Positions 2,119 through 53,373 of a DNA stretch of 63,470 nt are shown here, one piece after another. The stretch is from NCBI GenBank assembly GCA_900542615.1, contig UQOG01000003.1:1-63470 (forward strand), read 5' to 3'. The first letter of the stretch is position 1. Each line of letters opens with the position of its first letter. The notes below the pieces were generated by a model that was not told the origin of the DNA, made no database searches, and saw nothing but the letters and a program-made list of their open reading frames with translations. Both the position numbers and the translations under genes were made by a program. Origin of the DNA: an uncultured Eubacteriales bacterium (lineage in GTDB: Bacteria > Bacillota > Clostridia > Christensenellales > CAG-138).

Positions 2119-2964
2119 TTACGATATCAGCCCCAGCCGGTCAAGCGTTCGCTGGTGCTCTGCGCCAGAAGTCAGCAGATAGATGCGCGTCGTTTCGATG
2201 CTGCTGTGGCCCAACAGGTCGGACAGTTTGACGATGTCCCGACAGGCCCGGTAAAACACGGTGGCAAACATGTGCCGCAGATTGTGGGGGAACACCTTGC
2301 CCGGCATCACGCCGGCGTATTTGCAAAGGCTCTTCATCTCCGCCCAGATCTGGCGGCGGCCCAGTTCTTTTCCGCTTTTGGTGCGAAAGATCGCACCAGA
2401 GGCGGTCTTTTGCTTTTGGGCATATTTGAGCAGCTTGCGGCAGAGTTTCCCCGGCAGCAGGATCACGCGGATTTTGCCTTTGAGGGAGACTTCGGCCTTG
2501 CCCTGCCGCACGGCTTCCACTGTGATATAGCGGACTTCGCTGACCCGGATGCCGGTGGCCCCGATGGTCTCCACCAGCAAGCCCAGCCGCTCCCGGCCCA
2601 GACGGCAAGCCGCGTCCAGCAGGCTCTGATAATCGGATTTTGTCAGCTCCCGGCCGGCATCCCGGAACAGCCGCCGCTGGATTTTCAGGAATTTCACCCG
2701 GCAGTCGTTTAGATCAAGGTACGCCAACAGGCTGTTTAAGGCAGAGAGCATGGCATTGATACTGGCGGGGGCGTAGCCCTGCTCCGCCAGATAGGCTTTC
2801 CACTCTGCGGTCAGCTCCTTGCAGATTTCGCGATCACCCAGCCAGCAGGCGAATGCCCGGATATCCCGAAGATACTTTTCCATGGTGGCTGCGCTCTTCT
2901 CCTCCAGCAGAAGGTGACGGGCAAACGCCTGTATTTGCAGGGGTGTCAGTTTGTGTTCGGACAT
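2119..2964 (-). CDS. Tyrosine site-specific recombinase, XerC/XerD-like (281 aa)
   Basis: Track ORF 2119..3030 was trimmed to ATG 2964, which has an AAGGAGG SD upstream and gives the same length as the paralog at 10305..11150. Motifs: ATGIRVSEV (Arg I), HNLRHMFAT (HxxR), LLGHSSIETTRIYL (His plus Tyr nucleophile). Confidence 0.9.
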   Translation of the reverse strand: MSEHKLTPLQIQAFARHLLLEEKSAATMEKYLRDIRAFACWLGDREICKELTAEWKAYLAEQGYAPASINAMLSALNSLLAYLDLNDCRVKFLKIQRRLFRDAGRELTKSDYQSLLDAACRLGRERLGLLVETIGATGIRVSEVRYITVEAVRQGKAEVSLKGKIRVILLPGKLCRKLLKYAQKQKTASGAIFRTKSGKELGRRQIWAEMKSLCKYAGVMPGKVFPHNLRHMFATVFYRACRDIVKLSDLLGHSSIETTRIYLLTSGAEHQRTLDRLGLIS

Positions 2965-3472
2965 AGGGGGGCCTCCTTGCATGATTTCATGCCAACATTG
3001 TACAGGAACGGCAGAGACAGCAAAGCCCACAGCGGTAACTGCCGCTGTGGGCTTGTGAATCCTGGTCCCGCAATGGTAGGATTGCCACCGGTTTCCAGAA
3101 AATATACGGGTTGCCCTATCTGCTTATCATGGGATTCTTCTCTTCACGAGTTATGGAAGCAAATATGATACCATACTGCTCCAGAGGCCGATGGGAATAT
3201 CCGAAACACAACGAGGCTGCGTGCAGAAAAATATGCGTAAGCTGTTGATTACGAGTAGATTTTGCCTTTGTTCACAGCATCGAAATGCCGATGGCCGGCA
3301 GAGCGGGTTTTCCTTACGCAATTCTTCTGCCCCTCCGGCCGCGCAAAGTGGGTCCGGGCTTCCGCATGGAACTGCCCCTGGCTATAGCCGGGGACGATGC
3401 TTTCCCTGCCGAAAGGTGGGGGGCTTTTGGGATCGTCCGCCCCAAATCCTGTAAAAATTCTTTTTATTCCCC

Positions 3473-46255: not shown

Positions 46256-46981
46256 TTACTTGAGGGCCGGCAGCTTGATCATGCGGCCGGTATCCAGCAA
46301 ACGGGGGTTTTCGATCTGGTTGGCGTTGGCGATGACCCGCCATTGCTCGCACTGGCCGTATTCCCGGCCGGAAAAGCTCCACAGGGCGTCCCCCTGATGC
46401 ACGGTGCGGTACTTGGCGGTATCCGGGGACTCGTTGGGCTTCATCTCGGCGATCTTGCTGGGCTTCATATATTGCTTGAAGGTCACCTGCAAGGTAGCCC
46501 GCACCGGGGTGCCCAGCTGGTTGAACATGGTGAACTTCTGGCTGCAGTTCACCAGATGCCCCTCGAATTGCAGCGAACCCCATTCGATCTTCAGCAGAGG
46601 GGGCACGTGGGTGCTTTTATCGATGATCATCAGGTCGTAGATCTTGGCGGTATATTTGCGCACGTCCATCTTGGCGGGGGCGGGGGCCAGGGCGGTGGCG
46701 TTGAGCTTGAGCACGTCCCCCACGCTGCCGCCCACCATGCTGGCGGCGTAATAGGTATCGAAAAACAATTCCATTTGCAAGGTCTCGCTGCTTCCGTGCA
46801 CAAACTGGATGCTGGGCATATTGGAAGCCAGGCCCGGGGCCTCGCTGTATTTGGCCCCCCGCTCCTGGACGTAGGACTCGGGATTGTACATCACGTAGAT
46901 CTTTTTGTTGTTGGTCTTGTTGGTGATGCACATCTTTTCCAGGGGCATGATCATATTGGGATTGGGCTTGCCGATCTGCAT
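46256..46981 (-). CDS. LysM-domain tube-initiator/baseplate protein (Afp7-like)
   Basis: The N-terminal tube-like fold has YVMYNPESY...LQMELFFDTY. The C-terminal LysM domain has YRTVHQGDALWSFSGREYGQCEQWRVIANANQIENPRLLDTGRMIKLP. Confidence 0.85.
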   Translation of the reverse strand: MQIGKPNPNMIMPLEKMCITNKTNNKKIYVMYNPESYVQERGAKYSEAPGLASNMPSIQFVHGSSETLQMELFFDTYYAASMVGGSVGDVLKLNATALAPAPAKMDVRKYTAKIYDLMIIDKSTHVPPLLKIEWGSLQFEGHLVNCSQKFTMFNQLGTPVRATLQVTFKQYMKPSKIAEMKPNESPDTAKYRTVHQGDALWSFSGREYGQCEQWRVIANANQIENPRLLDTGRMIKLPALK

Positions 46982-47004: not shown

Positions 47005-49476
47005 TCATAGGCCCAGCCTGCGCTGGTCCCGTTTGAGCCGGTCCTGGATGATGGTATAGACCTGGTTGGCCATGCGCCTGATCTCCGCATCGGAAAACCG
47101 CAGCGGAGGCGTTTCCTGGGGTTCCGGCTTTTTCTTATGGGTCATACGGGCGGTGGCGCCGGTATACCCGGGGGCGGTCCAAACCATCTGGCTGGCCGGC
47201 TGGCTCTGGGGCCGCGCCGGGCTTGCGCCGGACTGCCCCTGGGCGGGCTGGCCGCCGGGCTTTGGCTGGGCCGGCTGGCTCTGCTTGGTTGGTTCAAAGC
47301 TATCCCGCAGGAAGTCCCGAGCCCACCCGGGCAAGGACTGCACGTAGGGGGATTCCGAATACCCTGCTTGGGCCGGGGCGGCTTTCTCCCCGCCCTTGGG
47401 GGCCGGGCCCATGGCCGGCTGCGCCTGCGGCCGGCTGGCCGCATAGGTGAGGGGCTGGCGCTGGAATTGGCCGCTTCCCCCCGCCGCCGGCAAGGCGGCC
47501 GCCTGGGTTTGCCCGGGCCGGAACCCGGTCATATGGCCGGGGCTCTTTACGCTGCCCAAAGGCCGGAATACCCGGTTCAACCCCTGTCCTTCCGCCGCCG
47601 GCGTTTGCCGGGAAAGGGCCTGGGCCGTCCGCTGGCCCAGGGGCTGGAAGTCCCGGTGCCAGGGCAGCTGTAGCGTCTCTTCCGCCCCGCCCTGGGGGGC
47701 AGGGCCGTACACCAGGGGCGTTCCCGTCTGCATCCCGCCTGTGGCAGCCACCGGCTGGGCCGGGGCCTGGGCCATGGGGGCGGGCTGGGCTTGGGGCTGC
47801 GCCGCCTCTGGGGAGGCTTGGCTCGCCTGAAGTGGGGATCGCTCCGCTGCTACCGCCTCTTGGACAGCCTGTTTTCCTTCCCCTTGGATGACGCGCTGCG
47901 CTTCCGATTTGGCCGTTTGCCGGGCCGCCTCCCCTGCCGCCTGGGCTTCCGCCGTCCCTTGGACTTCCCCGGCTTTGGCCAGGGGCCTTTCCGGTTCCCG
48001 AGCCGCCCTCTGCCGAAGAGCCGGCCCGGGCTCCGGGGCTTGGCCCGGCTCCGGGATGGGGGCGTATTGCAACGGCGCCTCCAGGGGGGCGAACGCCGCC
48101 TGTCCCAAAGCCCGCTGGGCCATGGCAGGCTGGTCGTCCGCGCTTCCGGGCTGGGCCTCTTCCCCGGCCGCTACCGTCTGGCCGGAGCCTGGATGGGCCG
48201 CTCCGGGGCGTTCTTCTATGTCCTGCCCCGTTGGGGGCTGCGGTTCCCTTGCTTGCTTTTGTGCGGGGGCTTTGGCCGCCGTTGCCTTTGGCCCGGCCTG
48301 AGCCCGGGATGAGGCGTCCATGGACGGCTGGCCGGCCGCTTGTGGGGTCCGGGCCTTTTTTGCCTGCCGGTCCTCCGTCCGGCTACCTCCTTCTTGGGCC
48401 GCCTGCCGGATTACCGGCTGGGCGGGAAGGACGTCCGGTTGGGTTGAAGCCGCCCCCTCCTGCCGGTGGGTCATGGCCGCCGGGCTGACAAGGCCGGCCT
48501 TCTCTTGGATGGCCGGGGCCAATCCCGTGGCCAGCGCCTCCTCCTCCGCAACCGTCTGGGAGATCGCCGAACCCGCCGCCGGCTGGAAAGCCGATTGAAC
48601 CCGCGCCTGGCCCGGGAAGGCCGCCTGCCGCAGATCCAGCGGCGCCATGTCCGGCTCCAGCTGAACCGCGGGGCCGGCAACCATGTCCGGGGGCATCGCG
48701 CCCTGCTCCAACCCCGCTTGGGGCGGGATGGCGCCCGGCTGGGCTTGGGATGCGCCGTCCGGGCCGGTCTGGGCCGCCTGGGCCGGGGCGATCGGAGTCC
48801 TATTCCCTTGGCCCCTGCCCGCCTGCGCCGAAACGGCCTGGGCGTCGCCGGCCCGGGCTGGCGGCGCCTTGGGGGCTGCCGCCCGGGCCGGGGGAAACGC
48901 CTGCCGCTCCAGCGGGGCGCGGGTGGAAGCGGTCAGGCCCGCTTCCTGGTTCCGGCGCAACACCTGGGCATAGCGCAGCTGGGCCGGTTCCGGGGCCTTT
49001 TGCCGGGCCGCAGCCACCTCCGCCATGGCCTTGGCCTGGGCCACCGGGCCCTGCAAAAATACCTCCCGCCGCGCCAGGGCGGCGCGCACGCTGGTATGGT
49101 AAAAATTCTGGATGGTGGGCGCGGCTTGGCGGATGACGCTGCGTTCCAGGGTGAACCGCTCCCGCAGGATGCGCTCCACCAGCCGCTCCGTCATGCTCTC
49201 CACGACCCTTTCCCCGGGTTCTTCCTGCTTTGCCTTGGATTGCTTTTCCGCCGGCAGGGTCAGGTGCAGATCCACCTGTACGTTGGGAACCGGGGCTGCG
49301 CCCTGGTCCTCCTCCGGGGCATATATGAGATGCAGGGGCGTATACAGGCCGGTAGCGGTATTGTTCCGCTCCAAAATGGCCTGGGCGAACGCCAGGGATG
49401 CAAAGGGGGATGCCGCCAGCGCCTCACGCTGGGGCAATACCGCCATATCCCGTTTGCATAGCCCGATGTTCTCCAT
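47005..49476 (-). CDS. Pro/Ala/Gln-rich low-complexity protein in tape-measure position (Afp14-like tail-length determinant candidate)
   Basis: 823 aa. The N-terminus of about 130 aa and the C-terminus of about 40 aa (FSDAEIRRMANQVYTIIQDRLKRDQRRLGL) are structured. The rest is PAQG-rich. The gene lies between the tube and LysM genes, as tape-measure genes do in phage and CIS clusters. Confidence 0.65.
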   Translation of the reverse strand: MENIGLCKRDMAVLPQREALAASPFASLAFAQAILERNNTATGLYTPLHLIYAPEEDQGAAPVPNVQVDLHLTLPAEKQSKAKQEEPGERVVESMTERLVERILRERFTLERSVIRQAAPTIQNFYHTSVRAALARREVFLQGPVAQAKAMAEVAAARQKAPEPAQLRYAQVLRRNQEAGLTASTRAPLERQAFPPARAAAPKAPPARAGDAQAVSAQAGRGQGNRTPIAPAQAAQTGPDGASQAQPGAIPPQAGLEQGAMPPDMVAGPAVQLEPDMAPLDLRQAAFPGQARVQSAFQPAAGSAISQTVAEEEALATGLAPAIQEKAGLVSPAAMTHRQEGAASTQPDVLPAQPVIRQAAQEGGSRTEDRQAKKARTPQAAGQPSMDASSRAQAGPKATAAKAPAQKQAREPQPPTGQDIEERPGAAHPGSGQTVAAGEEAQPGSADDQPAMAQRALGQAAFAPLEAPLQYAPIPEPGQAPEPGPALRQRAAREPERPLAKAGEVQGTAEAQAAGEAARQTAKSEAQRVIQGEGKQAVQEAVAAERSPLQASQASPEAAQPQAQPAPMAQAPAQPVAATGGMQTGTPLVYGPAPQGGAEETLQLPWHRDFQPLGQRTAQALSRQTPAAEGQGLNRVFRPLGSVKSPGHMTGFRPGQTQAAALPAAGGSGQFQRQPLTYAASRPQAQPAMGPAPKGGEKAAPAQAGYSESPYVQSLPGWARDFLRDSFEPTKQSQPAQPKPGGQPAQGQSGASPARPQSQPASQMVWTAPGYTGATARMTHKKKPEPQETPPLRFSDAEIRRMANQVYTIIQDRLKRDQRRLGL

Positions 49477-49504: not shown

Positions 49505-49927
49505 TTAGATGCAGCCGTTGTACTGCAATTCGATCCGGTTTACCGCCAGCTCCGGCTGGGTGCTGTTGAGGCTGGGCCCCACATATTTGGACAGCAGGGC
49601 GTCGTTGATCATCCAGGTGCGCTTGGTGGCCCCGGTATGATCCTTCAGGGTGATGATGCCGTTGATGGGCATACGCATTCCCAGGTTCATCAGGTGCATC
49701 CAGGCCTCAAACCCGTCGATCATGGTCACCGTCCCCTGCTCCAGCACCAGGGTCTGGGGGACGATATTCTTAAAAAACTGCCGGGGGTAAGGACAGCCGC
49801 CCTCGTTATAGGTTTCGTATTCAAATTCCATGGCCAGGCCGCTCACCGATGTGAACCGCCCGCTCAGGCCCAACGCCGGCGCCCCGAACATCACTTCAAA
49901 ATAGGTATTTGCCACATAATCCGACAT
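49505..49927 (-). CDS. Tail tube family protein, paralog 3 (Afp5-like)
   Basis: YFEVMFG...GRFTSVSGLAMEFEYETYNEGG...LVLEQG follows the gp19/TIGR02241 tube pattern. Confidence 0.85.
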   Translation of the reverse strand: MSDYVANTYFEVMFGAPALGLSGRFTSVSGLAMEFEYETYNEGGCPYPRQFFKNIVPQTLVLEQGTVTMIDGFEAWMHLMNLGMRMPINGIITLKDHTGATKRTWMINDALLSKYVGPSLNSTQPELAVNRIELQYNGCI

Positions 49928-49955: not shown

Positions 49956-50435
49956 TCAGGCCGGCGGGTTGGCCACCCGCTTGAACCCGGTGATGGAAAA
50001 TTCGATGGTTTCGGTCAACACGGCGCTCTGGCTGCTATCCATGGGCGCCAGGGTATAGGAAACCGGCATGGCGTTGATCAGCGACCAGATCACCCCCCGC
50101 TTCCCCTTCCCGTCCACGGCCACCACGTTGATGGTGCGGCGCAGGGACGCCCCGGTAGGCGGCGCGCTTTCCGAGGGGGCGCAGGCCAAGATCCAGTCGA
50201 AAAACTCATTGTCCCCGATCACCCCCTTGGTGAGGGTCACGTTTTCAAAGGAGGTGATAGAGGGGATCTTCTCGGTGACCCCCCGTTCCTCGGAGCCCCA
50301 GCGGGTCTCCACCACGTGGGTCTGCATCCGGATGCCGGAAAACTGGGCAAAGGCCGCCACCACCGTGGGCCCGGCCCCTTCCACCTCCACCAGGAAGCGA
50401 AACGCGTTGAAGGGCTCGTTATAGATAACGGACAT
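49956..50435 (-). CDS. Tail tube protein, paralog 2 (Afp1-like)
   Basis: FNAFRFLVEVEG...AAFAQFSGIRMQTHVVE...FENVTLTKGV. AAAGGAGGG SD present. Confidence 0.88.
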   Translation of the reverse strand: MSVIYNEPFNAFRFLVEVEGAGPTVVAAFAQFSGIRMQTHVVETRWGSEERGVTEKIPSITSFENVTLTKGVIGDNEFFDWILACAPSESAPPTGASLRRTINVVAVDGKGKRGVIWSLINAMPVSYTLAPMDSSQSAVLTETIEFSITGFKRVANPPA

Positions 50436-50460: not shown

Positions 50461-50610
50461 TCAGCGGAATTCGATGGGCCGCTGTTGGTCTTTGCCGCTT
50501 AGGTTCTGGTTGATGCCGGAAACCTCCGCGCACCAGCGCCGCCGTTCCCGGTGATCCAGATTCATCAGCTCTTCCCTGGGCCAATGGAGATAATATCCCA
50601 AAAAGGCCAT
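50461..50610 (-). CDS. Small conserved-looking ORF (49 aa from its ATG), probably the -1 frame extension (E'/T-like) of the tail assembly chaperone
   Basis: Not in the track because it is under 60 aa. It encodes MAFLGYYLHWPREELMNLDHRERRRWCAEVSGINQNLSGKDQQRPIEFR. The frame is -1 relative to 50649..51008 and stays open upstream through the chaperone stop. The ATG has no properly spaced SD (GAGGAA abuts it). Confidence 0.55.
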   Translation of the reverse strand: MAFLGYYLHWPREELMNLDHRERRRWCAEVSGINQNLSGKDQQRPIEFR

Positions 50611-50618
50611 TTCCTCAT

Positions 50619-50664
50619 AGAGCCGGTCCTGGGGATACAGGGCCAGCTCTAATCCAATAAAAAA
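50619..50664 (-). promoter_or_regulatory. Candidate -1 programmed ribosomal frameshift signal: T_TTT_TTA slippery heptamer plus downstream stem-loop
   Basis: On the minus strand the sequence reads GAT TTT TTA TTG GAT TAG. The heptamer T TTT TTA occupies 50664-50658 in the zero frame of the chaperone. Seven nt downstream, AGAGCTGGCC (50650-50641) can pair with GGACCGGCTCT (50629-50619). Confidence 0.5.
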
Positions 50665-51008
50665 TCCAGGGGCACCTCAAAGCTTTGGCCGCAATGGGGG
50701 CAGGCCACCTTATAGGAGGGGGTGTCCGCCATATTGATCCGCTGATACAGGTCCTGCAAATAGGCCAAGTCCATGGTGAACAGGCCCTCGATGACCCGGG
50801 TATTGATATTGGGCAGGGTGCCCAGCTTGGTGATGACCCGGGAGAGCAGGATGATGGAAAGATAGCCGGGGTTCTGCTGCACCTTGGGGTCCCGCATGGG
50901 CAATATCTCATCCGCCGCCGTGGCCAGGCGCATCACACCTTTGCGGTGCAGATCCCCGTTGGCGTCCACATAACCCTTTGGCAGTTCAAATTCAAATTCC
51001 GTTTGCAT
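50649..51008 (-). CDS. Tail assembly chaperone-like protein (P2 gpE / lambda gpG analog) with C-terminal zinc-ribbon-like CPHCG
   Basis: 119 aa. FELPKGYVDANGDLHRKGVMRLATAADEILPMRDPKV resembles the phage_E family chaperone pattern. It sits between tube paralogs and upstream of the tape-measure-like gene. Confidence 0.65.
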   Translation of the reverse strand: MQTEFEFELPKGYVDANGDLHRKGVMRLATAADEILPMRDPKVQQNPGYLSIILLSRVITKLGTLPNINTRVIEGLFTMDLAYLQDLYQRINMADTPSYKVACPHCGQSFEVPLDFLLD

Positions 51009-51107
51009 GGGTTGCCTCCATCATGCCGCGCGGGCCCCGGCGGGCGCCGCCGGGGGGCAAAGCCCCCGGCTTTGCGGCGCGCGCCGGGCGCGCAAGGTCA
51101 TAGGGTA

Positions 51108-51587
51108 TTAGTTGGGAGAGGGCTCGCCGGCAGGGCTGCCGGGGGTATGCTCCAGGCCCTCGTGGCACAGCTCCAGGGAATGGATGGCCACCTCGCCGCC
51201 CATACCGGACAGATCCGGCACCGTGTAGCTCACCGGCCAGGCGTTGATCAGGCTCCAGGAGGGGCCCGGGTTGCCCGCATCGTCGATGAGGGTGATGGTC
51301 ACGTTATGCCGCTCCAAGCCGGTGGGGTTGGCGGTGTTGGTGGGAGCTACGGAATAGACCCAGGTGAGGAAATCCGTATCGTCGCTCACGCCCCAGCGCA
51401 GGGTCACGTTGCCAAACTTGGTCAGGCCCGGCAGCTTGCGGGGGGTATTGCGCAGATCGTCGCCTTCCCGGTATTCGATGGCGTCCACGGAGGAGCTCAT
51501 GCCGGATACTTCAGAGAAGCCTGCCCGGCTGATGCCGTCGATCTCCACCTGGTAGCGAAATACTCTGTAGGGATAATTGATTGCCAT
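51108..51587 (-). CDS. Tail tube protein, paralog 1 (Afp1-like)
   Basis: YRVFRYQVEIDGISRAGFSEVSGMSSSVDAIEYREG...FGNVTLRWGV follows the tube family pattern. It lies directly after the sheath gene. Confidence 0.9.
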   Translation of the reverse strand: MAINYPYRVFRYQVEIDGISRAGFSEVSGMSSSVDAIEYREGDDLRNTPRKLPGLTKFGNVTLRWGVSDDTDFLTWVYSVAPTNTANPTGLERHNVTITLIDDAGNPGPSWSLINAWPVSYTVPDLSGMGGEVAIHSLELCHEGLEHTPGSPAGEPSPN

Positions 51588-51621: not shown

Positions 51622-53373
51622 TTAGCCTTCCGACTCGGAGGAGGCGGTGTGCTGGGTGATCCGGAAGATCACGAACTCGGCGGGCTTCACGGCAGCGATA
51701 CCGATGTTGCAGATCAACCGGCCGTTGTCGATATCATCCTGGGTCATGGTGGTGGGTCCGCACTCTACGAAATAGGCCTCAGAGGGGGTGGAGCCGGCCA
51801 GGGCGCCGGAACGCCAGCAGGTGGCCAGGAACATTTCGATGGTACGGGTCACCCGGCCCCAAAGCACTTCGCTGTTGGGCTCGAATACCACCCAGTTGGT
51901 GTTGGCCTTGATGGACTCCTCGATGTAGATGTACAACCGCCGTACGTTCACATACTTCCACAGGCCGTTGGAGCTCATGGTCCTGGCGCCCCATACCCGG
52001 ATGCCCCGGCCCGTAAAGGCGCGGATCAGGTTGACGCCCTTGGGGTTGAGGATATCCTGCTCGCCCTCGTTGTAGTTGCAGCTCAGGCCCGTGCAGCCCC
52101 GGACGATCTCATTGGCAGGGGCCTTATGCACGCCCCGCTCGTTGTCGGTGCGGGCATAGATGCCGGCCATGGCGCCGGAGGGCGGGAAGTAGGCGCTGCG
52201 CTTGGCCAGGGGGTCGAACATCTCCAGCCAGGGATGATACATGGCAGCGTAGGTGGTGTCGTACATATCCCGGAATTCCGCCACATCGTTGGTCTTTTTC
52301 CGGTCGATGGGCACATCCAGAATGGCGAAGCAGGACTTGCAGTTTTCGCAATGGGCGATCAGGGCAGCCTGTACCTCGGGGGCGGTGACGCCGGGGATGG
52401 CCATGATGGACACATCCACGTTCTCCAGGAAGGCAGCCAGGCCGCTGCGCTTGCCGGGGCCGTTATCCGCGCCCATGTAGACGCTGGGGTTCACGTTGGC
52501 GACCTTGCCGTCGCTGCCGCCCGCCAGGGCGATCACAGCGGCGCCGCCCACCAGCTCGATGGGGGTCGCGCCGGCCTTGGCGGGCGCGGGGGCCTTCTCG
52601 TCCTTGCCCTCCTTGGGGGCGGCGGGGGCCTTGGCTTCCGTTACGGCGACGGTCACCAGGTCGGACTTGCGGGTCCGGGCGCTGACGAAGTTGCCGGCTT
52701 CGGGGCAGAGGGATACGTTGGCGTAGGTCTCCACCACGTCGTCCAGCTTCACGGTCAGGGTCAGCTCGCAGGTCTTGATGTACTTGGGGGTGCCGATCTT
52801 TTCATCCGCCACGTTCAGGGTGCAGGGCGCATCCAGGGTAACGATGTTGTCCAGGCTGGAAACGATGGTGGCATAGGCCTTGGCCTTGCCGTCGAACAGC
52901 TCCACCACGTCCCCCTGGTTGAAGCCATCGGCATTCTTCAGCTTCAGGTCCGCGCCGTTCACGGCGATAACCTGGGTCTTGGCCTTGGAGGAGGCCTCCA
53001 CGGTTACGCGGATCTTGTTGCCCCATTCGCCGGGGTTAGCCGCCTCGATCTGCAGCACGCCGGCCGTTGCCTTGGCCGCCGCAGCGCCCTCGGCCGCCAC
53101 GCGCATGATATACGCGCGGGATCCGCCATTGATGAAGAACTGCTCCACCGCATAGGGCAGGAACCGGGCTTCGCCAAACTTGGCCTCGCTCAGATACCCG
53201 CCAAAGGCCCGCTTATAATCGGCAAAGCTGGTGACCAGCTGGGGCTTGCCCACCACCGGTCCCCTCTGCGCCAGGCCGATAAAGCCTGCGGTGCTGGTGC
53301 TGACGCCCTGCATGGGCACCGCACCGGAATCGTATTCTTCCACATACACGCCCGGGGATAAGTATTCTGCCAT
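51622..53373 (-). CDS. Contractile tail sheath protein (Afp2-4-like)
   Basis: 583 aa. It has the canonical N-terminus MAEYLSPGVYVEE...STAGFIGLAQRGP...VTSFADYKRAFGG and the C-terminal sheath core ...IRVWGARTMS...WKYVNVRRLYIYIEESI. Confidence 0.93.
   Translation of the reverse strand: MAEYLSPGVYVEEYDSGAVPMQGVSTSTAGFIGLAQRGPVVGKPQLVTSFADYKRAFGGYLSEAKFGEARFLPYAVEQFFINGGSRAYIMRVAAEGAAAAKATAGVLQIEAANPGEWGNKIRVTVEASSKAKTQVIAVNGADLKLKNADGFNQGDVVELFDGKAKAYATIVSSLDNIVTLDAPCTLNVADEKIGTPKYIKTCELTLTVKLDDVVETYANVSLCPEAGNFVSARTRKSDLVTVAVTEAKAPAAPKEGKDEKAPAPAKAGATPIELVGGAAVIALAGGSDGKVANVNPSVYMGADNGPGKRSGLAAFLENVDVSIMAIPGVTAPEVQAALIAHCENCKSCFAILDVPIDRKKTNDVAEFRDMYDTTYAAMYHPWLEMFDPLAKRSAYFPPSGAMAGIYARTDNERGVHKAPANEIVRGCTGLSCNYNEGEQDILNPKGVNLIRAFTGRGIRVWGARTMSSNGLWKYVNVRRLYIYIEESIKANTNWVVFEPNSEVLWGRVTRTIEMFLATCWRSGALAGSTPSEAYFVECGPTTMTQDDIDNGRLICNIGIAAVKPAEFVIFRITQHTASSESEG

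Follow-up and report, generated by a model that had tools for sequence, protein, structure and literature searches.

The 63,470 nt of contig UQOG01000003.1 (assembly GCA_900542615.1) analysed here, referred to below as the window, come from an uncultured Eubacteriales bacterium of the CAG-138 lineage. The minus strand carries the locus of an extracellular contractile injection system (eCIS), in which the open reading frame (ORF) of a tail assembly chaperone (TAC) overlaps a second frame, in the -1 register, that encodes the conserved domain DUF6760. The question raised by this locus is how a domain that has no start codon in front of it comes to be translated. The evidence presented below makes it very likely that the heptamer T_TTT_TTA near the end of the chaperone ORF causes a -1 frameshift that joins the chaperone to DUF6760, yielding a short and a long product.

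Anatomy of the chaperone gene and the -1 frame

The elements on which the argument depends are as follows.

50649..51008, minus strand: TAC gene, 'G-like' zero-frame product of 119 aa and 13.5 kDa
50658..50664, minus strand: slippery heptamer T_TTT_TTA, in the zero-frame X_XXY_YYZ register over the codons GAT TTT TTA
50461..50658, minus strand: predicted -1-frame extension after the slip, 65 codons and a stop
50494..50643, minus strand, -1 frame: DUF6760 (PF20546) domain, Pfam 52.9 bits, three predicted helices
50608..50610, minus strand: internal ATG of a 49-aa ORF, the sole ATG, GTG or TTG in the open -1 frame
50618..50651, minus strand: candidate stimulatory hairpin with a 13-bp stem, one 1x1 internal loop and a 6-nt spacer after the heptamer
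50673..50678, minus strand: Shine-Dalgarno (SD)-like GAGGTG, which encodes a conserved Glu-Val and whose GAGG ends 10 nt before the heptamer

The 3' end of the 119-aa ORF reads CCC CTG GAT TTT TTA TTG GAT TAG on the minus strand, which confirms the zero-frame T_TTT_TTA at 50664-50658 that a sequence-only reading of the window had located in a chaperone-like ORF: T(50664) is followed by TTT (50663-50661) and TTA (50660-50658), and the zero-frame stop TAG lies at 50651-50649. Translation likewise agrees with its claim that the -1 frame is open from the heptamer to 50461. A TGA at 50679-50677 closes this frame upstream; from 50676 on it is open as far as the stop at 50463-50461, and it shares 28 nt with the chaperone ORF. 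It reads ..GAPGFF IGLELALYPQDRLYEEMAFLGYYLHWPREELMNLDHRERRRWCAEVSGIN..PIEFR*, or GAPGFF-IGLELALYPQDRLYEEMAFLGYYLHWPREELMNLDHRERRRWCAEVSGINQNLSGKDQQRPIEFR when written continuously, and the predicted trans-frame 'GT-like' product has 182 aa and 21.2 kDa.

A single heptamer of this kind is unremarkable in the window, because TTTTTTR occurs there 22 times on the two strands (9.3 expected from dinucleotide shuffles), and the excess over chance rests on the comparative data given below. The TTTTTTR copies are concentrated in the first 19 kb. Another TTTTTTA, at 49771-49777 on the minus strand, lies within the second of two downstream tube paralogues, outside the X_XXY_YYZ register.

The DUF6760 domain begins upstream of the only start codon

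When the codons before the ATG at 50610 are included, the -1 peptide covers profile positions 3-52 of DUF6760 and scores 52.9 bits (gathering score 27); the ORF that begins at this ATG gives 42 bits over positions 15-52. The Pfam match begins 11-12 codons upstream of the ATG, in a region containing no ATG, GTG or TTG. In the AlphaFold2 model of the 65-residue -1 peptide, the predicted local distance difference test (pLDDT) score is 85-89 across residues 10-50, which form three helices, and Met17, encoded by the ATG at 50610, is in the middle of predicted helix 1 (residues 10-24). The position is occupied by Ala, Ser, Leu, Thr, Val or Ile in approximately 20 Clostridia-type loci and by Val in at least 90% of the distant members. 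Because both the Pfam match and helix 1 begin before the ATG at 50610, the conserved domain starts where a start codon is absent, and this ATG most likely encodes an internal Met of helix 1 and is not where a protein begins. The sequence-only reading had remarked that GAGGAA abuts the ATG without SD spacing, and the spacer is indeed zero.

These features bear directly on the alternative that only two separate proteins are made, with DUF6760 initiated at ATG 50610, ATT 50658 or CTG 50646, perhaps by termination coupling, and with the heptamer representing mere Asp-Phe-Leu codons. The database annotation is in line with such an arrangement: RefSeq/PGAP lists a 'phage tail assembly protein' (or 'hypothetical protein') and a 'DUF6760 family protein' as separate coding sequences. 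For the window itself, however, independent initiation fits poorly, since there is no ATG, GTG or TTG before 50610 and the Met at 50610 is mid-helix, unconserved and directly abutted by GAGGAA. The database entries are also uneven. A search of 1.8 billion representative proteins returned 254 DUF6760 clusters, mostly of 45-100 aa, with ragged N-termini that lie at the domain start, include 16-28 residues of out-of-frame chaperone 3' sequence, or result from truncation at an internal Met.

A Foldseek comparison of the DUF6760 model with the PDB gave chance matches only. At the C-terminus, many Chloroflexota-type DUF6760 proteins terminate, after a variable spacer, in a conserved G-(I/V)-P-L-(Q/E)-x-W, which may be a short docking peptide; the window protein ends in ..RPIEFR (50464-50478), and its relatives end in ..TFELR or ..TFSLR.

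The upstream ORF belongs to a tail assembly chaperone family

In a PHROG profile search, the 119-aa protein matches phrog_508, 'tail assembly chaperone', with E = 1.9e-6, and the same profile is matched by 26 of 26 diverse homologues, the best at 6.3e-10; homologues carry the NCBI label 'phage tail assembly protein'. The match to phrog_508 makes the 119-aa protein a homologue of known tail assembly chaperones, and the label 'chaperone-like' given in the sequence-only reading is upheld. The C-terminal tail is of a CxxC...zinc-ribbon-like type.

This profile match is the sole link between the chaperone and phage TACs. A Pfam search of the 119-aa protein returned no family, including no Pfam TAC family; a tblastn search of 50,697 phage genomes with the fused product gave only weak chance matches to mycobacteriophage hydrolases; and a chaperone pattern scan of IMG/VR gave two 17-residue zinc-ribbon matches and nothing credible. 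At the sensitivity used, the chaperone-DUF6760 family is not recognisable in sequenced phages. Foldseek of the chaperone model, itself poor, against BFVD returned nothing below E = 0.08. Profile searches of PDB chain sequences, eCIS particle structures included, credibly matched neither the chaperone nor the DUF6760 family, which agrees, weakly, with both products being absent from the mature particle.

Two further observations concern this family. Tandem chaperone-chaperone proteins of approximately 250 aa, with a zinc-ribbon-like tail in each repeat (P0004, P0007, P0008 and P0014), are encoded upstream of the sheath gene in another eCIS arrangement, and no DUF6760 was called beside them. Additionally, the C-terminal PLDFL of the chaperone (50658-50672) resembles the YPLDxL(Y/F)EE start of distant DUF6760 domains (50632-50646 in the window), a resemblance that is probably coincidental. 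A MAFFT alignment of the fusion with short DUF6760 proteins was abandoned, as it mis-aligned YPLDxL onto the chaperone PLDFL.

The -1 relation and the shift-prone site are conserved

Three sets of loci were compared. Set 1 consists of 80 loci with 69-100% chaperone identity, from a scan of one genome per GTDB species, plus the window (81 loci), and includes Oscillospiraceae, Lachnospiraceae, Christensenellales, Desulfosporosinus, Syntrophomonadaceae and others. Set 2 consists of 85 environmental and Chloroflexota/Acidobacteriota loci, of which five were taken for distant proteins of Anaerolineae and Thermoanaerobaculia and 80 came from a metagenome scan seeded with that lineage; four were excluded because they are truncated at contig ends. 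Set 3 was drawn from a tblastn search of plasmids that found the two-piece pair in 46 replicons, ten of which were examined (Nostoc, Rhodococcus, Kitasatospora, S. clavuligerus, Burkholderia, Ralstonia, Rhizobium, Paenibacillus, Haloferax and Halogeometricum). The pooled sets comprise 171 loci (81 Clostridia-type, 80 environmental and 10 plasmid or chromid). The distant loci of Anaerolineae and Thermoanaerobaculia encode a Pvc16-type cap, a sheath, a tube, a chaperone of 121-127 aa and DUF6760.

Relative to the chaperone, DUF6760 is read in the -1 frame in 81/81 loci of set 1, in 80/80 loci of set 2 in which both parts could be placed (L133 being an in-frame fusion), and in 10/10 loci of set 3. 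Throughout sets 1 and 2, the zero frame stops 2-7 codons past the site. The sequence-only reading had asked whether slippery site and frame relation are kept in homologous loci. A shift-prone site recurs at the corresponding codon, and the small ORF is in the -1 frame in 171 loci; all the comparisons that the reading had named as able to contradict it were run, with none doing so. It had spoken of Firmicute loci, to which the feature is not bound: eCIS loci of Actinomycetota, Cyanobacteriota, Pseudomonadota, Chloroflexota, Acidobacteriota and haloarchaea have it too.

The same recurrence bears on the possibility that a single chaperone-DUF6760 gene has been split by a homopolymer indel, either an assembly error or the mark of a pseudogene. 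Although homopolymer runs are error-prone and a few singleton metagenome proteins (P0001-P0003) read through the junction variously, the interrupted arrangement is present in all 171 loci, including those of the complete Oscillibacter valericigenes Sjm18-20 and of finished plasmids, and the zero-frame stop is always 2-7 codons beyond the site. An artefact or decayed gene is extremely improbable.

The codons at the site in set 1 are GAT TTT TTG in 36 loci, GAT TTT TTA in 31 and GAT TTT TTC in one; the remainder are AAT TTT NNN after GTA or ATA (A_AAT_TTT, eight loci) and GAT TTT CTG/CTC (five). Of the 81 loci, 76 have a canonical heptamer at the homologous codon, and all 81 have T_TTT in register. 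GAT-TTT-TTR is used in 67 of the 72 Asp-Phe-Leu loci, which range from 29 to 69% GC, against a mean expectation of 6.5% computed from each locus's own codon usage. In set 2 the site lies in a G run of 5 (29 loci), 6 (17 loci) or 7 (30 loci), with G5-G9 in 78/80 loci; it reads G_GGG_GGG in 32, G_GGG_GGA in 17 and C_CCG_GGG in four, and is non-canonical, mostly G_GGG_GAR, in approximately 24. Approximately 30% of the loci in other phyla have only G_GGG_GAR. The haloarchaeal sites of Haloferax and Halogeometricum are G_GGA_AAC and G_GGA_AAT.

The predominance of homopolymers, with T6 in 70/81 loci and G5-G9 in 78/80, would also be expected if the same fusion arose by transcriptional slippage, in which RNA polymerase adds or drops a base within the T6 run or, elsewhere, a G5-G7 run. 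Efficient runs in bacteria have approximately 9 A or T (PMC5009743), whereas the run in the window has 6, and the frame is also kept at A_AAT_TTT, T_TTT_CTG, G_GGA_AAC/T and C_CCG_GGG, which are not long homopolymers, several lineages having only T4 or mixed heptamers. The 6-nt spacing of the downstream hairpin is, in addition, typical of ribosomal stimulators. Slippage of the polymerase is accordingly considered very unlikely.

The distance between site and domain defines two classes in set 1. In the 46 short-linker loci, the aligned DUF6760 start (A-L-Y-P in the window) comes exactly five codons after the heptamer. The other class, of 34 long-linker loci, has a conserved peptide of 38-52 codons (AGLEWASEEDEGLPIRR...) inserted before DUF6760. 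The long linker is open in the -1 frame in 34/34 loci, in the zero frame in 16/34 and in the +1 frame in 8/34, and differences between long linkers fall on third codon positions (1005) more than on first (658) or second (690) positions.

The insertion, AGLEWASEEDEGLPIRR...W(R/Q)D(I/L)PRR..SPLS.K in Flavonifractor/Oscillibacter-type loci, covers approximately 110-150 nt after the chaperone stop (L008, L010, L011, L013-L014, L016-L021, L028-L030, L032-L035, L037-L040, L042-L051, L055 and L071). It usually ends in ATG or GTG just before the domain, and an extra internal start at this point is conceivable.

The search for start codons between the slip site and the domain found no ATG, GTG or TTG in 25/81 loci of set 1, one without an SD-like motif in 48 and one with such a motif in eight; in set 2, no canonical start is present in 65/78 loci. 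Separate initiation could thus draw on those set-1 loci that carry a start near the domain, and also on the ATGA-type overlaps in Rhizobium, Burkholderia, L086, L114 and L122, which give a -1 relation automatically. It leaves unexplained the 25/81 and 65/78 loci without a canonical start, the use of GAT-TTT-TTR far beyond codon-usage expectation, the 110-150-nt linkers, for which the -1 frame is the only one that stays open throughout, and the natural in-frame fusions described next. Translation of two separate proteins only is considered unlikely.

Natural in-frame fusions

Clean in-frame fusions of chaperone and DUF6760 were found in two protein clusters, P0213 (150 aa, three members) and P0231 (167 aa, a singleton). 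P0213 is encoded in the metagenomic eCIS locus L178 (4577-5453). Besides a sheath gene and three tube genes, this locus has a gene for a stand-alone chaperone (138 aa), followed after 8 nt by the fusion gene (150 aa). The stand-alone chaperone is 54% identical to that of the window and 37% identical to the chaperone part of the fusion. In effect, this lineage hard-wires 'G' and 'GT' as two genes; we know of no stronger single argument for a chaperone and a chaperone-DUF6760 fusion as the functional products.

In L133 (~2501-3010), the two parts share one frame by virtue of two compensating indels, with a four-G run and loss of the GYP motif (..NASGNDWLPSDRLFEEVAY..); this may be either a hard-wired fusion or an assembly artefact. 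The singleton fused proteins P0001-P0003 have irregular junctions, are probably assembly errors or deletions, and were excluded from the evidence.

Candidate stimulators and proposed mechanism

The stem-loop that the sequence-only reading had proposed after the heptamer is present, with the 13-bp stem and 6-nt spacer listed above. Its folding energy is -21 kcal/mol (z = -2.3 versus shuffles), and its 5' arm includes the zero-frame TAG. On 36 short-linker loci, 77% of cells are paired, compared with 32-50% in slid controls; two pairs show GC<->UA double changes, and the covariation score exceeds all 500 shuffles. RNAalifold found no consensus structure for all short-linker or all long-linker loci. 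Upstream, GAGG is present at -14 in 67/81 set-1 loci. An SD-like stimulator lies at a similar upstream spacing in E. coli dnaX, and little beyond the heptamer is reportedly needed at lambda G/GT. The hairpin and the GAGG may be frameshift stimulators and are treated as candidates only.

We infer that ribosomes do slip in this gene and that they do so as a minority. The majority would end at the TAG (50651-50649) and release the 13.5-kDa chaperone as the major product; the others would slip one nucleotide back on U_UUU_UUA (50664-50658) and read on in the -1 frame, giving the 21.2-kDa fusion as the minor product. The downstream hairpin, at a distance of 6 nt, and perhaps the upstream GAGG, at 10 nt, may aid the slip. 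If lambda gpG/gpGT and P2 gpE/gpE+E' are a guide, the chaperone part common to both products would coat a tape-measure-like protein and the DUF6760 part, as we infer, would recruit tube subunits, with neither product staying in the finished particle.

The junction would read ..PLDFL-IGLE.. if the Leu-tRNA slips in tandem, and ..PLDFF-IGLE.. if a slip of the peptidyl Phe-tRNA alone is followed by entry of a new Phe-tRNA, so that the predicted junction peptide is VACPHCGQSFEVPLDF(L/F)IGLELALYPQDR and its predicted tryptic form VACPHCGQSFEVPLDFLIGLELALYPQDR. The junction DFL of the sequence-only reading thus stands for tandem slippage, and its last residue may be Phe if the slip is confined to the P site (PMC5009743). 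The T_TTT_CTG and G_GGG_GAR sites are compatible only with slippage of the peptidyl-tRNA alone, a mode for which experimental support is cited in Atkins et al. 2016 (PMC5009743).

Several points weigh against a frameshift at this site. U_UUU_UUA is a weak shifter in E. coli relative to A_AAA_AAG (PMC5009743). The GAT TTT CTG/CTC of five Clostridia-type loci and the G_GGG_GAR of approximately 24 environmental and most plasmid loci are non-canonical and would require P-site-only slippage. In some lineages (Rhizobium, Burkholderia, L086) an ATG or GTG is located at the domain start, including ATGA overlaps, and since 4-nt or 1-nt overlaps also yield a -1 relation, independent, coupled initiation is possible there. 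The loci within each set are phylogenetically related, so that the counts overstate the number of independent events. The hairpin is conserved in only part of the family and lies within coding-constrained sequence. The AlphaFold2 model of the chaperone, from a 26-sequence alignment, has a pLDDT of 59.7 and gives no fold-level confirmation.

With these points taken into account, the frameshift remains the strongly favoured explanation for the window. The wider proposal is that recoding is obligatory across a major eCIS branch in bacteria and haloarchaea, that DUF6760 is a tube-recruiting 'T domain', that the ratio of short to extended product controls assembly or length, and that many lineages slip the peptidyl-tRNA only, on G_GGG_GAR or T_TTT_CTG. 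This we hold to be slightly better than an even proposition.

The surrounding eCIS locus

The neighbouring genes, in order from upstream to downstream of the chaperone-DUF6760 pair, are listed below.

51622..53373, minus strand: sheath gene (PF04984 and PF17482)
51108..51587, minus strand: tube gene of the T4 gp19 family, directly upstream of the chaperone gene (PF06841, 3e-40)
49956-50435, minus strand: gp19-type tube paralogue, directly downstream of the pair (PF06841, 1.6e-26)
49505-49927, minus strand: second downstream gp19-type tube paralogue (PF06841, 1.7e-18)
47005-49476, minus strand: tape-measure/Tme candidate of 823 aa, from position and composition only
46256-46981, minus strand: CIS_tube gene, by domain match
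25875-28091, minus strand: ATPase with AAA+ and winged-helix domains (AAA+/WHD), by domain match
24274-25791, minus strand: eCIS_core (DUF4157) protein, by domain match

Beyond CIS_tube follow, in order on the minus strand, a YQBQ-like protein, a VgrG-type protein with an oligonucleotide/oligosaccharide-binding fold (Phage_base_V), gp25 (GPW_gp25) and baseplate J (Baseplate_J). The locus accordingly has the gene content of an eCIS: sheath, tube, CIS_tube, Phage_base_V, GPW_gp25, Baseplate_J, the AAA+/WHD ATPase and eCIS_core. Among the window ORFs scanned, no capsid or terminase families were found, and neither was the Pvc16/DUF4255 cap protein, which adjoins the sheath gene in related loci.

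The sequence-only reading had placed the pair just upstream of the tape-measure gene. This does not hold for the window, where the two gp19-type paralogues intervene and the candidate is two genes downstream. The 823-aa protein is rich in Ala (20%), Gln (12%) and Pro (11.5%), is largely of low complexity, has a basic helix-like end (..FSDAEIRRMANQVYTIIQDRLKRDQRRLGL), and has no match in Pfam, NCBIfam or PHROG even at E<5. Its position corresponds to that of Tme of Streptomyces davawensis, upstream of the CIS_tube and baseplate genes (PMC11126660), and together with its composition suggests that it may be the tape-measure protein. In Kitasatospora, a giant DUF4157 (Tme-like) gene directly follows the pair.

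A terminator scan around the locus called none. A GC-rich hairpin of -60 kcal/mol (z -2.15), lacking a U-tail, occupies the whole space between tube and chaperone genes (51009-51110, minus strand) and could be an attenuator or an mRNA-stabilising element that lowers expression after sheath and tube. Just upstream of the operon, on the minus strand, a receiver-only protein (55531-55899) is encoded together with two response regulators of LytTR type (56086-56793 and 57039-57755), and downstream of it are HAMP, SpoIIE and MORN proteins; all these are possible dedicated regulators of the injection system.

The haloarchaeal loci of Haloferax and Halogeometricum (L169, 4986-5782, and L176, 1486-2288) belong to plasmid-borne eCIS clusters. 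Their chaperones, of approximately 177 aa, have an acidic linker and no zinc-ribbon tail, their DUF6760 has a C-terminal extension of approximately 40 residues, and a 50-aa ORF lies between the tube gene and the chaperone gene.

Implications and comparison with known systems

If the frameshift operates as proposed, DUF6760 gains a role as the frameshift-added C-terminal domain of an eCIS tail assembly chaperone, and thousands of database entries, in which it is free-standing with ragged starts, need correction. The eCIS would have retained the assembly logic of their phage-tail ancestors, and tube nucleation and measuring would become directly testable. Codon optimisation or re-engineering of eCIS operons for protein delivery would unknowingly destroy the site, which both Streptomyces-type and Clostridia-type systems carry. 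A large and broad set of cellular -1 sites would also be added, including poorly studied GC-rich G-run and archaeal ones, and one homologous position would offer T_TTT_TTR, A_AAT_TTT, G_GGG_GGR, G_GGG_GAR and G_GGA_AAY for comparing the heptamers and stimulators that various translation systems accept. Were recoding indeed obligatory across the branch, it would be among the most widespread cellular (non-viral and non-insertion-sequence) programmed frameshifts, with a rare archaeal case.

The mechanism itself is the classic tail-chaperone frameshift and is unsurprising, in hindsight, in a phage-tail derivative. The open papers and preprints that were checked yielded no description of a frameshift in a contractile injection system chaperone gene, and what appears to be new is its occurrence in eCIS loci across bacteria and haloarchaea, with a PHROG-508-type chaperone joined to DUF6760.

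A close parallel is lambda gpG/gpGT, a frameshift reportedly worked out by Levin, Hendrix and Casjens in 1993 and by Xu, Hendrix and Duda in 2004, 2013 and 2014. The lambda heptamer is G_GGA_AAG, to which the G_GGA_AAC/T of the haloarchaeal eCIS is close. As in lambda, the tube gene is followed by two overlapping ORFs, of which the second has no start of its own and is read in the -1 frame; the zero-frame stop comes a few codons after an X_XXY_YYZ heptamer, and a short and a C-terminally extended product are predicted here. In lambda, the tape-measure protein is bound both by gpG and by the G portion of gpGT, while the T domain of gpGT binds the tube protein and nucleates its polymerisation, and both products leave the finished tail (Atkins et al. 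2016, PMC5009743). The present system differs in being a capsid-less eCIS with an AAA+ ATPase, in having DUF6760, a three-helix domain of ~50 aa, as the extension, in the zinc-ribbon-like tail of its chaperone, and in the two tube paralogues that precede the tape-measure candidate.

P2 gpE/gpE+E', said to have been described by Christie et al. in 2002 (J Bacteriol 184:6522), belongs to a contractile tail whose genes reportedly run sheath, tube, chaperone, -1 extension and tape measure, with the slippery run T_TTT_TTG. The window shares the sheath-tube-chaperone order and a T-rich run, and the heptamer T_TTT_TTG is found in 38 Clostridia-type loci. Unlike these loci, P2 belongs to the viruses, and its E' is not known to be related to DUF6760. 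The P2 frameshift is reported to be more efficient than that of lambda (PMC5009743).

Like E. coli dnaX, the window would provide a chromosomal bacterial -1 frameshift, with a candidate GAGG 10 nt upstream and a candidate hairpin 6 nt downstream. In dnaX, the site is A_AAA_AAG, combined with an upstream SD-like element and a downstream hairpin. The shifted dnaX product is the shorter one and is made at a ratio of ~1:1, whereas the shifted product here is longer and probably minor, and its stimulators are candidates.

An archaeal precedent for G/GT-type shifting is provided by the haloarchaeal tailed viruses HVTV-1 and HCTV-1/2/5, which have -1 frameshifts in their tail chaperone genes (PMC5009743); the Haloferax and Halogeometricum loci differ from these in being plasmid-borne eCIS. 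Finally, whereas RefSeq and PF20546 treat DUF6760 as a free-standing small protein, the loci compared here indicate that, as a rule, it forms the C-terminal domain of a frameshift product.

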